Both the position numbers and the translations under genes were made by a program. From an uncultured Acidobacteriota bacterium (GTDB taxonomy: Bacteria; Acidobacteriota; UBA6911), in NCBI GenBank assembly GCA_963809485.1, contig CAWEJX010000006.1:352001-416000 (forward strand): a stretch of DNA of 64,000 nucleotides. Direction: 5' to 3'. Shown here piece after piece: positions 8,240 to 17,763 of the stretch. The first letter of the stretch is position 1; each line of letters begins with the position of its first letter. The notes below the pieces were generated by a model. The model searched no databases and was not told the DNA's origin. It saw only the letters and a list, made by a program, of their open reading frames with translations.

Positions 8240-9651
8240 CTACGCATCGTAATACAGATGGAACTCATGCGGATGCGGCCGCAGAGCCATCTCGTCGAGT
8301 TCCTTTTCCCGCTTCCACTGAATCCACGTCTCGATGAGGTCGTCGGTAAATACGTCGCCCTCAGTCAGGAATTTATGGTCCTTCTCCAGAGCGTCGATTG
8401 CTTCCGCGAGTGAGCCGGGTGCCTTTTTGGTCTTTGCCAGCTCTGCCTTGGAAAGCTCATACACATCAACGTCCATCGGCTTACCCGGGTCGAGTTTGCG
8501 TTTGATGCCGTCGTTGGCGGCCATAAGCATCGCGGCGAAAGTCAGGTAGCCGTTGCAGCTCGGGTCCGGGCAGCGGAACTCAACGCGTTTTGCCTTTGGA
8601 CTTGGTGAGTACATCGGGATACGGCAGGCGGCTGACCGGTTGCGTGCCGACATACAAAGATTTACCGGCGCCTCGAAACCAGGCACGAGGCGACGATATG
8701 AGTTTGTCGTCGGTGCCGCGAAAGCCAGAATGGCCGGGGCGTGATGGATAAGCCCGGCAATCGCGTGCATAGCCATATCTGAAAGACCTGCATAGCCCTT
8801 TCCGGCGAACAGGTTGACGCCTTTCTTCCAGAGCGAGAAGTGCGTGTGCATACCGGAGCCGTTGTCCTGGAATATCGGCTTGGGCATAAACGTCGCCGTC
8901 TTGCCGTGACGTTTGGCCACGTTCTTGACGATGTATTTATACCACATCAGCTTGTCGGCCTGCTCGACTAACGGTGCGTAAAGCATATCGATTTCGGCCT
9001 GACCGCCGGTGGCGACTTCGTGATGGTGCTTCTCAATCACGATGCCGACCTTCTGCATTTCCTCGACCATTTCGGTGCGGATATCCTGCTGAGTATCGGT
9101 CGGGCTTACCGGGAAATAACCGCCCTTGTATGACGGCTTATATCCGAGGTTTGGCTCCTCGAAACGGGCGGTGTTCCATGACCCTTCCGATGAATCGATT
9201 GAATACATACCGGTATGCTGATTCTGCTCATAGCGGACTTCGTCGAAGATAAAGAATTCCGGCTCAGGGCCGTAATAAGCGGTATCCGCCAATCCGGTGC
9301 TTTTCGCGAATTCAGCCGCTTTCTTGGCGATATTGCGCGGGTCGCGATTGTATTCTTCGCGAGTCATCGGATCGACCACGTCCGCCAGGACGCTCATTGT
9401 CGGCTTTGCGAAAAACGAGTCCATTACCACGGTGCTCAGGTCCGGAACCGCCATCATGTCCGACTGGTGAATTGGTTTCCAGCCGCGGATTGATGAGCCG
9501 TCGAAACCAAGACCTTCCTCTAAGGTCTTTGCGTCGAGGAACTCAATTGGGAAGGTGCAGTGCTGCCATGTGCCAAGAAGATCGACGAACTTCAAGTCCA
9601 CCTCCCGGCATTGTTCTTTTTTGCGAAATCAAAAAATTCTTTTGGAGTCAT
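8240..9651 (-). CDS. glnA: Glutamine synthetase type I (1-nt frameshift near 9603)
   Basis: 'FDGSSIRG', 'HHEVATGGQ', '[14 protein letters not shown]', 'RLVPGFEAP', 'EFHLYYD'. The N-terminus [13 protein letters not shown] starts at ATG 9651 (GAGGTG RBS) in a different frame. Confidence 0.96.
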
Positions 9652-9928
9652 TTGTTCACCTCTCAAAATAAATTGGGTTGCTATGGTTTTTTGCCATTCG
9701 ATGCAAAACACTTTTGAGACTTATGCAGCAAGGCATATGCTATTCTCATTGAACACATTCGATTTAGATAAAAGCTTTGATAGCCTTCATGAGACATCCA
9801 GCGGCCTTTTATCGGCCTAGATTTTAGCGCCATTGATTGCATCACTCCGCCAGTCTCTCATCCATTCAAATCCTGCCAGCCTTTGAGGCTTTATCCCAAA
9901 TGGATAATCCTGTTCCGATAGATCCGTA

Positions 9929-9945
9929 TGCAAACAAAAAGCCAA
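9929..9945 (-). promoter_or_regulatory. Sigma-54 -24/-12 promoter for glnA
   Basis: Minus strand ttGGctttttgtttGCa (GG-N10-GC). Confidence 0.65.
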
Positions 9946-10034
9946 AATTCAGGTTTCCGAATATTTATCTTTTAAACATAACTGAATCAATGGTTTGGAC
10001 GGCTTGGTCAAAACAGGCCAAGGCAAGGCAGAAT

Positions 10035-10077
10035 TACATTATTGTATAAATTATATTGTCATATTTACAAATATGTG
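10035..10077. promoter_or_regulatory. Paired TACA-N4-TGTA sites (putative enhancer-binding-protein UAS for glnA)
   Basis: tacattattgta (10035) and tacaaatatgtg (10066), 31 bp apart, about 90-135 bp upstream of the -24 box. Confidence 0.65.
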
Positions 10078-10354
10078 CCTAATTCCCAATCGCGACTGTT
10101 TCCGGATGATCGAGCAGCAGTTTTGAACAAGCAACGATATCCCTGGAGCCTGGAGCGCGTGCATTCTCGCCTATCGGGACCACAGAATCCCAAAGAAATG
10201 GCCAAGATGTATGGCTGTGGAGCAGCGGCGTATTAGCCTTCTGTCAATGCGGGCCAACATGCTCATGTTTCTCGGACGGATTTTGCCAGTCCAAACTTGG
10301 CGCTTTATCACCAGATTCCAGCACGCCATTAACTCCAATACTGAGAATTAATTC

Positions 10355-10383
10355 TTGACCTCAGGCTACTGCATATATAGCAT
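10355..10383 (+). promoter_or_regulatory. Sigma-70-type promoter for pyrG-carAB
   Basis: TTGACC-17 bp-TAGCAT. Confidence 0.55.
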
Positions 10384-10419
10384 TGACAATCATTGAATAT
10401 TATTGGAGCTTTTAGGGTC

Positions 10420-12303
10420 ATGAACAATGAGGATCAATTATTAACTCTGGAAGATGTGGCTGATCGCCTGAAAATTTCGGTCAGTACTGTACGCAGATGG
10501 GTAAAATCTAATGAATTGCGGTCGATTAAGATAGGCAATCGTGGCCAATACCGCATTGGTTTGAGAGATCTCGAGGAATTCCTTGCCGAACAGGAGGCTC
10601 AACAGCCGGATACGACTACAGTGGCCACTCTCAAGCGCGGCAGAGAATGGCGGCAGGCCGTCGACTGGGCGCGTTCCCATACCAAATACATTGTGATCAC
10701 GGGGGGCGTCATCTCGGGTTTGGGCAAGGGTATCGCTGCTGCCTCCATCGGGAAGCTGCTCAATTCGCGTCTCATGATTGTCCCCATCAAGTGCGACGGG
10801 TACCTCAACACAGACCCGGGAACCATGAATCCGATCGAGCATGGCGAGGTTTTCGTCCTGGACGACGGCGGTGAAGTGGACATGGACTTCGGCCATTACG
10901 AACGCTTTCTGGGAGTGACCTGCCGGTTTGAGTGGAACCTGACCATGGGCAAGGTCTACAAAACAATCCTGGATCAGGAACGGGAGGGTTTTTATCTCGG
11001 CCAGACCGTACAGCTGATCCCGCACGTGACGGACGTGATCAAGGAATGGTTCTACGAAATTCCCGGGCGCCTGCAGGCGGACATCGGCCTGATCGAGATC
11101 GGCGGCACGGTCGGCGACATGGAGAATGAACTGTATCTGGAGGCGGTGCGGCAACTGCGCCAGGAAGTGGGCGAGGCGAACGTGCTGTTTGTCCACGTGA
11201 CTTACATCCCCGTTCCGGCTGGGGTGGAAGAGCAGAAATCCAAGCCGACGCAGCAGTCGGTCAAGCTGCTTAATGAGCGCGGCATCCGGCCGGACGTTAT
11301 CATCGGCCGCTGCAGCGAGCGGCTGACCGAGAAGATCAAGCAGAAGATCGCCCTTTTCTGCAACATCGACAAAACCGCCGTAATCTCCGGTCTCGATGTG
11401 CCGTCCGTGTACCAGATCCCGCTGGTTTTCGAAGAGGAAGGTTTGACCGAAATCGTCCACAAGCGGCTCACCATCTATTCGCCGCCGCAGTTGCTGGAAT
11501 GGCGCAACCTGGTCGACCGGCTTTTGTCGCCGACCGGGCCGGTGATCCGGGTGGCGATTTGCGGCAAATACACGAACCTGCACGATTCTTATGCCAGCGT
11601 GATCGAGGCGGTGCGGCACAGCGGGGCGCATATAGACGGCCAGGTGGAAATTGACTGGCTGGACACGGCGGAGCTGGAGCGAAACAGCGGTTCTTGCGCC
11701 GAATTCCTGCGCAAGGTGGACGCGGTCATTGTTCCCGGCGGCTTCGGCACTCGCGGCATCGAGGGCAAGATCCAGGTGATCCGCTACTGCCGCGAGAACG
11801 GCATCCCTTTTCTGGGCATCTGCTACGGCATGCAGCTGGCGGTTGTGGAATATGCCCGGCATGTGGTCGGTCTGCCGGGCGCACACACAACGGAAGCGGC
11901 CGAAGACGGTTTTGAAGTCGCCGATCCGGTGGTGTGCATCCTTCCCGAGCAGGTCGGAGTCACGCAGAAGGGGGGGACCATGCGATTGGGCGGCCACAAT
12001 ATCGTGCTCAAGGAGAATTCGCGCGCTGCCCGGCTTTATAAAAGCGGGAAAATCCGGGAGCGCTTCCGTCACCGCTACGAGGTTAATCCCGACTATGTGG
12101 CGCGCCTTGAAAAAGCCGGCATGGTGTTCTCGGGCCACGACCCTACCGGCACGATCATGCAGGTCATGGAGCTGCCGAATCATCCCTGTTTCCTGGCGTG
12201 TCAATTCCATCCCGAGCTGACCTCCAAGCTGGAGGAGCCGGCTCCGTTGTTCCGCGAGTTGATTCGCGTCGCTTTTGATAGAAAAAAAGTGCTTCCGGCT
12301 TAG
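10420..12303 (+). CDS. pyrG: CTP synthase with N-terminal excisionase-like (HTH_17/MerR-type) DNA-binding domain
   Basis: '[38 protein letters not shown]' HTH, then '[17 protein letters not shown]', 'KSKPTQQSV', 'GICYGMQ', 'RHRYEVN', 'QFHPEL'. Confidence 0.95.
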
Positions 12304-12311
12304 GGGTACCG

Positions 12312-13445
12312 ATGCAAAAACGAATGCAGGCAATGCTGGCGCTGGCCGACGGCCGCGCCTTTTCCGGCTGGTCTGTGGGTGCGGCCGGCGAAACCCTGGG
12401 CGAGGTGGTTTTCAACACCTCTCTGATGGGCTACCAGGAGGTCCTCACCGATCCCTCGTACCGCGGGCAGATCGTGACCATGACCTACCCGTTGATCGGC
12501 AACTATGGGCTGAATGCCGAAGACGCGGAGGCAAACCGGGTTTTCCTGGCCGGCTTCATAGTGCGTGAGGACTGCCCGACTCCCAGCAGCTGGCGCAGCC
12601 GCACCAGCCTGCACCAGTACCTGTGTCGGCACGGCATTGCGGGCATCGCCGGCATAGACACGCGGGCCCTGACGCGCCACCTGCGCGAGCAGGGCGCCCA
12701 AACGGGCATCATTTCCACTCTGGACCTGAATCCGAAATCGCTGGCCCGGCGAGCCGCGCAGTATCCGACCCTGGACAACCGCGACCTCGTTCGGGAAGTC
12801 ACCTGCGCGGCGCCATACGGCTGGAGCCAGACAACCTGGTCCATGAACGCGGAGAGCATTCCTCCGGCCGCACAGGATGCCGGCAAATATTACGTGGTCG
12901 CATACGACTACGGAATCAAGCACAACATACTGCGCAACCTGGTGCGGGTCGGCTGCCGGGTGGAGGTTGTGCCGGCGTCGACGCCGGCCGCGTCCGTGCT
13001 GGCCAGGAATCCCGACGGCGTTTTCCTCAGCAACGGTCCGGGCGATCCCTCTGCCGTCGATTATGCCATTGCGGAGGTGAAGAAGCTTTTGGGCCGCAAG
13101 CCGGTCTTTGGCATCTGCCTGGGCCATCAGATTCTCTGCCTGGCTTTGGGCGGAAAGACATACAAACTCAAATACGGCCATCACGGCGGCAACCAGCCGG
13201 TGATGGACCTGACGACGCAGAAGGTGGAGATCACGGCCCAGAATCATGGCTATGCCGTCGACATCGATTCGATGGGCGGAGACGTGGTGTGCACACACCT
13301 GAACCTGAACGACCGGACGGTGGAGGGCATGGCCCACCGGCGGTTGCCGGTCTTCTCGGTGCAATATCACCCGGAGGCATCGCCCGGGCCGCACGATGCA
13401 AGCTACCTGTTTGCCCGGTTTGTGGACTTGATGAAGAACCGTTGA
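12312..13445 (+). CDS. carA: Carbamoyl-phosphate synthase small subunit
   Basis: '[21 protein letters not shown]', 'SNGPGDP', 'GICLGHQ', '[12 protein letters not shown]'. Confidence 0.97.
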
Positions 13446-13524: not shown

Positions 13525-16768
<3,244 letters not shown>

Positions 16769-16773
<5 letters not shown>

Positions 16774-16831
16774 CGAATTGCGATTGACGATTGGAAACAG
16801 ACAGTGTTGTTCAATCGTCAATCGTCAATTG
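16769..16831. repeat. Inverted heptamer-repeat hairpin between convergent genes
   Basis: gattgacgattg ... caatcgtcaatcgtcaatt. Confidence 0.65.
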
Positions 16832-16849
16832 TTATGCCTCGGCGGTCCT

Positions 16850-17620
16850 TCAAAAGGTAATGCCGTAATAGACGAAGAAATACCGGTTCCTGGCAGCGTT
16901 GCCTTCCTCCCAGCTGTCATTGCCGATGCTGTAGCCGGCATTCAACAATCCGTTTCGCGGGAGCACGATCGAGATGCCCGGCGTGAAATATCCGAACCCA
17001 TTCTTTCCGCTGAACCAGTCGGCCACAATGCTGACCGTTTTATTCGCCGGCTGCTCGTATCCCAGAATCACGCCTGCGCGCGGACCCAAAAAGCTCACCG
17101 GTCCTTCAGCGGGATCCTGGTTTGCGGACACAATGCCATACGGGCCGGCGTGAAAACGCGGGCCGTAATCCCCCGACTTAATCTTCTTGCTGACCAGGCC
17201 GTAGATCAGGCCCCAGCTGTCCTGGCCGCTGCGGTTGTTGAGGGGAGTGTTCAGCAGGCCGCCGACTGCCATGGCGACCCCGGCGTCTTCGCTACTGTAG
17301 AACTTCCACTTTGCATTGGGCTGAATGAATCCGCTGGTTGCGGAGTCACCGGAAAATCTTGTGTTGTAGAGCGGGAAGTTCACTCCGAATTCGAGGTTGG
17401 CGGGTCCGCCGATCACCGTTCGGGGATTGTAGAGGTATGTCCGGGAAACACCGGTCCCGGGCAACTGCATCAGAAAGTCGAATTCCGCATATACTTTGCC
17501 CTGGGCTGCGGTATCCGTAGTCGGGATATTGAAAATTGTGGACTGGGCCAGGGCATGGCCTCCGGACAAAACCGATATTATGACTGCCAATCCGAGCAAC
17601 ACTCTGCATATTTTCGCCAC
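16850..17620 (-). CDS. Predicted outer-membrane beta-barrel protein, unknown family
   Basis: GTG start at 17620; signal peptide ending 'HALAQ'; alternating amphipathic strands; C-terminal 'YFFVYYGITF' beta-signal. Confidence 0.75.
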   Translation of the reverse strand: MAKICRVLLGLAVIISVLSGGHALAQSTIFNIPTTDTAAQGKVYAEFDFLMQLPGTGVSRTYLYNPRTVIGGPANLEFGVNFPLYNTRFSGDSATSGFIQPNAKWKFYSSEDAGVAMAVGGLLNTPLNNRSGQDSWGLIYGLVSKKIKSGDYGPRFHAGPYGIVSANQDPAEGPVSFLGPRAGVILGYEQPANKTVSIVADWFSGKNGFGYFTPGISIVLPRNGLLNAGYSIGNDSWEEGNAARNRYFFVYYGITF

Positions 17621-17763
17621 TGCAATCCGCCTTTCTTGAATGTGAGACATAGGTGTGTCCGGAAGCAGGATGAGCAAGGGGTTCAGCAGTCCCTTTATTC
17701 TCTTTGAGGGATGAATCCGCTCTGCAAATCGCCTCCCTCTCTCCCGGGCGCCGGATTTTCTTC

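Follow-up and report, generated by a model that had tools for sequence, protein, structure and literature searches.

A CTP synthase fused to a BldC-like helix-turn-helix domain, with a triple direct repeat on its own promoter, in an uncultured Acidobacteriota bacterium

CTP synthase (PyrG) is a universal and heavily studied enzyme, and the tetramers and filaments that it forms in response to nucleotides serve as a model of control through assembly. Here we describe a PyrG that carries a DNA-binding helix-turn-helix (HTH) domain at its N-terminus. Its gene lies in 64,000 nucleotides of contig CAWEJX010000006.1 (positions 352,001 to 416,000, forward strand), the whole stretch analysed here, referred to below as the window; all coordinates are those of the window. 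The host is an uncultured soil or wetland bacterium of the Acidobacteriota (lineage UBA6911; assembly GCA_963809485.1), whose genome of 6.04 Mb is 95.7% complete. The fusion is almost certainly real and not an artefact. Three direct repeats lie on the pyrG promoter; this triple repeat is new in the present analysis and was absent from the initial annotation of the stretch. It is probable that the protein is an autorepressing enzyme-regulator, or "trigger enzyme", whose BldC-like HTH domain binds the repeats in its own promoter and represses pyrG.

The HTH-pyrG reading frame runs uninterrupted on the + strand from a TTG at 10393 to a stop at 12303 (ORF listing), and its earliest ATG, at 10420, gives a 627-aa product. 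The initial annotation had placed the start of the gene at 10330. That position turned out to lie outside the coding frame, and 10330-10419 is taken up by the promoter, the three repeats and the ribosome-binding site. The gene and its parts are as follows:

10420..12303, + strand: HTH-PyrG coding sequence, 627 aa plus stop (ORF, translation, Pfam, NCBIfam)
10438..10593, + strand: BldC-like winged HTH (HTH_17), aa 7-58 (Pfam, NCBIfam, PDB sequence and fold matches)
10594..10635, + strand: variable acidic tether, aa 59-72 (predicted local confidence, pLDDT, below 50; identity 0.20 to divergent relatives)
10636..10683, + strand: conserved helix preceding the PyrG core, aa 73-88 (structure models, W77 invariant)
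10684..11475, + strand: CTP synthase synthetase (ALase) domain, aa 89-352 (PF06418, 1.4e-108)
11578..12267, + strand: class-I glutamine amidotransferase (GATase) domain, aa 387-616 (PF00117, 3.2e-40)

Pfam, NCBIfam and the translation all bear out the single uninterrupted frame of HTH_17 and complete PyrG that the initial annotation had reported; by every sequence test the fusion is a PyrG, and it is also a member of HTH_17. The HTH_17 model (PF12728) matched aa 7-58 over profile positions 1-50 of 51 (6e-14, 52.5 bits, cut-off 27), and the TIGR01764 "excise" model matched with 42 bits (cut-off 28.8), which places the domain among the excisionase-family HTHs. In Pfam the CTP_synth_N and GATase matches follow in that order, and the PyrG model TIGR00337 covers aa 87-616 with 729.6 bits (cut-off 462.75; model positions 2-525 of 526). 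Residues C468 (GICYGMQ), H597 and E599 (FHPE) of the GATase domain, which we take to be its Cys/His/Glu triad, are invariant in 62 of 62 aligned rows. The PyrG portion is complete, and the enzyme is presumably active.

The translation contains no Met between M1 and the PyrG core, and no start signal was seen through the roughly 30 residues after the HTH, in agreement with the initial annotation, which had found neither an ATG nor a ribosome-binding site there. The junction DNA reads ...TCC CAT ACC AAA TAC... (S-H-T-K-Y) and is, as was also pointed out there, one G short of ATG ACC AAA TAC. An excisionase-like small gene and pyrG could in principle have been joined by a sequencing or assembly indel near 10670-10690, and the missing base is what speaks for it; we regard this as extremely improbable. 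Contigs from other sequencing runs (X1 and X2) span 10590-10900 with no inserted or missing letters. The residue before T/V-K-Y differs between relatives (H, N, K or R) and the frame is open throughout, and a separate pyrG would have neither a start codon nor a ribosome-binding site. Open junction frames also recur in relatives from multiple sources, described next.

When scored on aa 1-100 alone, a search recovered 63 proteins. Sixty-one of these are 622-642 aa long and combine HTH_17 with PyrG, at identities in that region down to 52%, and the remaining two, at 370 and 563 aa, are fragment-sized. The shorter matches P0063-P0066 are likewise of fragment length, P0064 beginning within the tether; among complete sequences of the fused clade there is no member without the HTH domain. 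A scan of one genome per species gave 16 fused loci, every one in an uncultured metagenome-assembled genome labelled Acidobacteriota, "bacterium" or, in one case, Deltaproteobacteria fen_1099. Fifteen of them have a complete open frame of 627-648 aa and the 16th is truncated by a contig end. Eleven further fused loci came from a metagenome scan, although some are probably from the same organisms as the genome loci. A library of 1.84 billion representatives yielded only fragments of the fused family, along with generic HTH_17 proteins that are at most 55% identical. In up to 3 kb of flank at each of 69 sister-lineage loci with unfused pyrG, a hidden Markov model of the N-terminus (E up to 1e-3) found no separate HTH gene, and an HTH in frame upstream of pyrG was absent in all 20 native relatives. 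For P0072, the closest protein without the fusion, no locus was recovered; fused relatives made up the best matches of the metagenome scan.

Within the genus, 25 genomes (own included) divide into 8 with the fused N-terminus, 13 with unfused PyrG only and 4 without a match, these last being incomplete genomes (completeness 71-89%). Each of the 8 fused-gene genomes gave one PyrG match (127-aa query). The single CTP_synth_N match in the window's own genome makes the fused gene its sole pyrG and leaves no sign of the second, unfused copy that the initial annotation had considered. The source annotation of the fused proteins is plain "CTP synthase". A full-text literature search did not find a paper describing an HTH-CTP synthase fusion, in line with the initial annotation, which knew of no characterised example.

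The N-terminal part is conserved unevenly. Between the window and its 11 most divergent relatives, identity is 0.74 in the HTH, 0.20 in the tether and 0.49 in the helix at aa 73-88, as compared with 0.84 in the synthetase domain and 0.75 in the GATase domain. About 20 HTH positions, R25, R26, W27 and G39-R45 among them, are invariant in all 62 rows, as is W77 of the helix. This pattern shows in silico that the HTH is under purifying selection. The initial annotation had described a linker of about 30 aa between the two domains; its length was correct, but it consists of two parts, the acidic tether (aa 59-72) and the conserved helix (aa 73-88). In AlphaFold models aa 7-60 form a strand-helix-helix-hairpin-helix unit (pLDDT 82-91 over aa 11-60), the tether is disordered, and a helix at aa 75-87 is present in both models.

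The nearest PDB entries, by sequence as well as by fold, are the BldC-DNA complexes 6AMK and 6AMA. The sequence match has an E-value of 0.005. The fold match extends over 50-52 columns at an rmsd of 1.5-1.8 Å with 32-34% identity (top Foldseek matches to the two entries: target-normalised TM 0.73-0.82, rmsd 1.5-1.9 Å, E-values 0.013-0.054), and is followed in rank by MerR-type NmlR, RacA and phage Xis. On direct repeats BldC assembles into head-to-tail multimers whose subunit number varies. Its Lys26 and Arg30 make base contacts, and its His46 is located in the AT-rich minor groove (PMC5859096). In the sequence alignment these three residues correspond to S22, R26 and R41 of the fusion, and R26 and R41 are invariant. 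Classical MerR models remained below their cut-offs (PF13411, 18.5 bits against 21.6; PF00376, 17.3 bits against 28.2), and the N-terminus is no classical MerR regulator. The domain is BldC-like but not a member of the BldC family.

The nearest HTH relatives outside PyrG include proteins with 4-8 tandem HTH_17/MerR-type domains (these multi-HTH relatives are among P0125, P0129, P0136-P0140 and P0170), and others have an HTH_17 at each end of a PAS-GAF core. Such covalent HTH_17 arrays are consistent with a habit of direct-repeat binding. Four other loci in the own genome (L002, L004, L005 and L009) encode HTH_17 fusions in which the partners are PBP_like or a response-regulator receiver; they also include an SPFH/Band-7 protein with a C-terminal HTH_17 and a MerR-like HTH joined to a TPR protein. 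PyrG is the sole enzyme among the HTH fusion partners examined in this genome.

The DNA ahead of the gene contains the following elements:

10355..10360, + strand: -35-like hexamer TTGACC (promoter scan, 17-nt spacer)
10378..10383, + strand: -10-like hexamer TAGCAT, overlapping repeat 1 (promoter scan)
10381..10406, + strand: putative operator of three direct repeats with a 10-bp period (alignment, pattern and matrix scans)
10405..10408, + strand: Shine-Dalgarno-like GGAG, overlapping repeat 3 (read from the sequence)

The repeats are CATTGA (R1, 10381-10386), CATTGA (R2, 10391-10396) and TATTGG (R3, 10401-10406). The array lies 39 nt before the ATG and spans the interval from the -10 box to the ribosome-binding site. 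Aligned upstream DNA of the window and the 16 genome loci gives a consensus of about (C/T)A(T/A)TG(A/G) with exact 10-bp spacing. TTGAC stands at a constant distance from the repeats in most related loci, and the -10 box, TAG(C/T)AT, is conserved in the anchored alignment of fused loci. The upstream flanks are unconserved and cannot be aligned; only the -35 box, the -10 box and the repeats are conserved. GGAG is absent from some relatives (e.g., L028 and L033).

A strict triple-repeat pattern was found in 16 of the 17 genome fused loci, window included. Fourteen of these have it at -39, and the other two at -33 and -40; the 17th (L039) misses the strict pattern and keeps a TGR core at the 10-bp period. 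The pattern was also present in 8 of the 11 metagenome fused loci, and the three misses have either two good repeats with a degenerate third or the L039 variant. It was found upstream of none of 20 native unfused pyrG genes of genus- and class-level Acidobacteriota relatives, and upstream of none of 62 unfused pyrG loci in the PyrG lineage closest to the fused clade. A slightly stricter pattern has one match in the entire own genome, at the pyrG site. There, a weight matrix built from 15 loci, with the window and its near twin left out, scored 36.6, as against 20.0 for the next-best site in the genome. In five other fused genomes the pyrG upstream region was matched in 5 of 5, with 2 extra matches overall and none for a reversed-pattern control; a wider regulon for the repeats was not found in these genomes or in the window's own. 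The array persists down to 72% protein identity. Within the genomes scanned, the repeats are thus shown in silico to associate exclusively with fused genes and to be unique in the own genome.

RNA-based control of the same region was considered and rejected. Rfam gave no match in 9400-10800 at E up to 1, and the leader at 10385-10450 folds at -7.4 kcal/mol with z +0.55, no better than shuffles; neither result supports an RNA leader, riboswitch or attenuator.

The HTH might be functional without being an autoregulator: it could anchor CTP synthase on the nucleoid, attach it to different DNA or to RNA, or make a protein contact, and the repeats could be bound by another factor or represent promoter or leader elements. 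HTH_17 is common outside gene regulation, the fold matches include RacA-type anchoring and Xis proteins, and repeat 3 overlaps the ribosome-binding site, all of which fit such a role. We nevertheless consider it unlikely, as the repeats accompany the fused gene across Acidobacteriota and Lernaellota labels though its neighbours change, are missing from 82 of 82 unfused pyrG upstream regions and occur once in the own genome, and a general nucleoid tether needs no specific site on its own promoter. Alternatively, the HTH could bind the repeats but activate or fine-tune expression, or act on translation. BldC both represses and activates, and the sign of regulation in the fusion is read from position alone. 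A repressor classically sits where these repeats do, over the -10 box, the expected transcript start and the ribosome-binding site of a promoter whose spacer has the optimal 17 nt; activators of the MerR type, or those acting from upstream, are placed differently. Activation or translational action therefore seems quite improbable to us.

A conserved DNA-binding domain, together with three evenly spaced repeats on the promoter of its own gene, suggests that the enzyme probably switches off that gene, and some form of autoregulation through the repeats is, in our judgement, reasonably likely. In the proposed mechanism a flexible acidic segment would connect a BldC-like winged helix with the complete PyrG. 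One HTH domain would occupy each repeat, head-to-tail on a single helix face. The repeats extend from the -10 box across the expected transcript start as far as the ribosome-binding site, and their occupancy would block RNA polymerase or transcript start, repressing pyrG and, where linked, carAB. CTP synthases tetramerise with ATP/UTP or with CTP, and because of this the assembly state of the enzyme may set how many tethered domains bind. If, as expected, the enzyme alternates between dimers and tetramers in response to ATP/UTP/CTP, it would bring together fewer or more HTH domains, and their avidity for the repeats could in this way follow the nucleotide pool, a form of product feedback without a separate regulator. 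Nucleotide- or assembly-dependent control of operator binding is advanced here only tentatively, from the known tetramerisation of CTP synthases, and is less likely than not. Its specific form, in which tetramers or filaments gather the BldC-like domains for cooperative loading on the phased repeats and so shut off pyrG(-carAB), is a speculative and rather doubtful extension.

For the initial annotation's suggestion of a DNA-binding trigger enzyme, the conserved and genome-unique triple repeat on the gene's own promoter is strong circumstantial support. That the domain binds the repeats, that binding represses, and that nucleotides govern it are inferred. Several observations weigh against autorepression as formulated above. 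The full-length model (mean pLDDT 69.7) does not allow the HTH to be positioned reliably with respect to the tetramer. The BldC family model NF033787 scored 18.1 bits, well below its cut-off of 77, and the Foldseek E-values, 0.013 at best, are weak owing to the small size of the domain (about 50 residues). Three repeats have no obvious match to a four-subunit enzyme, and their sequence differs from the AATTxxxx(C) given for BldC (PMC5859096). The fused loci are kin, so that counts overstate their independence, and the unfused control upstream regions belong to different lineages with different promoters. Finally, repeat 3 overlaps GGAG, and part of its conservation may therefore reflect the ribosome-binding site.

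In a phylum sample of 401 genomes, 397 had a PyrG match; among the matches listed, all but the window and a genus-mate (G001) are unfused and 45-50% identical. Unfused PyrG of other uncultured groups, with source labels that include Myxococcales, Zixibacteria, Fibrobacterota and a Thermoprotei bin, is 65-73% identical to the fused PyrG, and one fused protein is labelled Candidatus Lernaella stagnicola (phylum Lernaellota). In a tree of the PyrG part (maximum-likelihood, 50 rows, quick search, SH-aLRT support only), 20 fused sequences form one group (99) with two unfused proteins as sister (97), and seven native Acidobacteriota sequences lie across a long branch from it. The fused clade is monophyletic and deep (72-96% identity). 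Given the identity of only 45-50% to other Acidobacteriota PyrG, the fused pyrG is best classed, on sequence comparison, as a xenolog that has taken the place of the native copy. Most simply, fusion occurred once, after which the module spread, sometimes with carAB, and replaced native pyrG in part of the genus.

Several Acidobacteriota pyrG matches sit in stop-free frames of 1000-1340 aa (e.g., G044:C1:1512299-1513891, G096:C35:35532-37127 and G063:C25:4677-6269), which may be other fusions or merely long open frames in GC-rich DNA. The unpublished genomes G034, G063 and G186 are among those counted, and of the tallies just the ones for unfused PyrG in the class and phylum samples draw in part on them.

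The HTH-coding DNA differs in composition from the remainder of the gene, as had been noticed in the initial annotation. GC is 0.39-0.43 at 10350-10574 and 0.55-0.64 beyond, and third-position GC (GC3) is 0.43 in the HTH part against 0.78 in the remainder. GC3 of the HTH-coding 180 nt (10420-10600 in the window) is below that of the PyrG part in 17 of 17 fused loci (window and L024-L039), with ranges of 0.40-0.70 and 0.66-0.94, respectively, and near-equal values in L030. The skew is thus maintained throughout a deep clade; foreign origin, selection at the 5' end, or binding of this AT-rich DNA by the protein itself are possible causes. The HTH might also be a neutral or decaying passenger, for example an excisionase remnant of a mobile element that carried pyrG-carAB. 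Its AT-richness, the TIGR01764 match and the xenologous nature of the gene would agree with this. We give the idea very little credence, as the HTH is conserved like the GATase domain (0.74 against 0.75), its roughly 20 invariant positions hold in 62 of 62 rows, and no complete sequence of the deep, monophyletic clade has lost it.

Downstream, the gene is followed on the same strand by:

12312..13445, + strand: carA of the cassette, 8 nt past the pyrG stop (Pfam)
13525..16773, + strand: carB of the cassette (Pfam; synteny in 10 of 15 loci)

The position of the fused gene at the head of pyrG-carAB, as initially annotated, is thus shared: carA and carB follow it in the window, and of 15 related loci with sequence available downstream, 10 have the same arrangement. 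In several related loci without carAB the next ORF of at least 120 aa is on the opposite strand. On the other side of the gene, glnA (8240-9601) is encoded on the opposite strand about 820 bp upstream of pyrG. The initial annotation had proposed that the fusion might also regulate this divergent glnA. Such co-regulation is unsupported and was dropped, as glnA lies upstream of fused pyrG in only 1 of 16 related loci (L028) and the glnA-pyrG spacer has no second repeat site. Neighbouring genes therefore vary, and the constant unit is promoter, repeats and HTH-pyrG.

The spacer between glnA and the pyrG promoter (9602-10354) is about 750 bp long and AT-rich (GC 0.36-0.45) and has no Rfam match. 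Pfam recognises neither of its two small ORFs (9837-10049 and 10042-10236), nor a 309-aa ORF that directly follows carB on the same strand (16778-17707). A second carA-carB pair is present in the own genome at G000:C5:69969-74314 (L064 7969-12314), in the order lepB (signal peptidase)-carA-carB. This native-type carA is 60% identical to the window carA, the same level as the carA of genus-mates, and the window carAB therefore looks like part of an imported cassette. Judged by its gene content, the organism has two carbamoyl-phosphate synthetases.

If the proposed function is correct, the fusion would be the first CTP synthase to act as its own nucleotide-sensing transcription factor, and a new regulatory solution in which the enzyme serves as its own repressor in the manner of BirA and PutA. 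It would offer a simple system for coupling the assembly of a metabolic enzyme to transcription, and would extend BldC-type direct-repeat binding past small free-standing regulators. At about 2 kb the module is compact, and it is specific, with a single site in each genome. It would represent a self-contained and horizontally mobile unit of promoter, operator, sensor and enzyme that displaced native pyrG in several uncultured lineages. The gene is also a clear instance in which an imported and, as proposed here, self-regulating copy has supplanted a housekeeping gene that is essential.

Several known systems share features with the fusion. Bacterial pyrG is known to be controlled by reiterative transcription or attenuation, via leader RNA (Bacillus, Lactococcus). 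Canonical PyrG belongs to the same enzyme family and has the same domain order, but starts with M(T)KY (20 of 20 native Acidobacteriota relatives), whereas the fusion carries 88 extra residues and, in place of a leader RNA structure, a DNA repeat array. Classical MerR regulators have a coiled-coil dimerisation helix and an effector domain and bind a palindromic operator within a 19-20 nt spacer; in the fusion promoter the spacer is 17 nt and direct repeats run downstream from the -10 box. Excisionases and other recombination directionality factors often bind tandem sites cooperatively. One of them, Xis of mycobacteriophage Pukovnik (4J2N), belongs to the same Pfam and NCBIfam family as the fusion's HTH and ranks 10th among its fold matches. 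In the fusion, by contrast, no role in recombination is apparent; the domain is joined to a housekeeping enzyme and its sole matching site is its own promoter.

The fusion shares with trigger enzymes the combination of an enzyme and a DNA-binding domain in one polypeptide. BirA, PutA and NadR likewise join an N-terminal DNA-binding domain to a pathway enzyme and repress genes of their own pathway, and in BirA ligand-driven oligomerisation drives operator binding. This is the logic proposed here for nucleotide-driven tetramerisation. The folds and enzymes differ, the operators of BirA, PutA and NadR are palindromic, and these proteins are experimentally established, whereas the fusion is known from its sequence. 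BldC of Streptomyces, after which the BldC family of MerR-like winged-HTH regulators was founded, provides the nearest PDB match to the HTH, in sequence and in fold. It is a free-standing protein of 68 residues with a large regulon; here the domain is fused to a 539-aa enzyme and apparently has one site per genome. Its Lys26 is replaced by Ser22, and the repeats are CATTGA-like, as compared with the AATTxxxx(C) consensus reported for BldC (PMC5859096). The base-contacting Arg30 has an invariant counterpart in R26, and the BldC repeats of about one helical turn (PMC5859096) resemble the three direct repeats with a 10-bp period on the fusion promoter.

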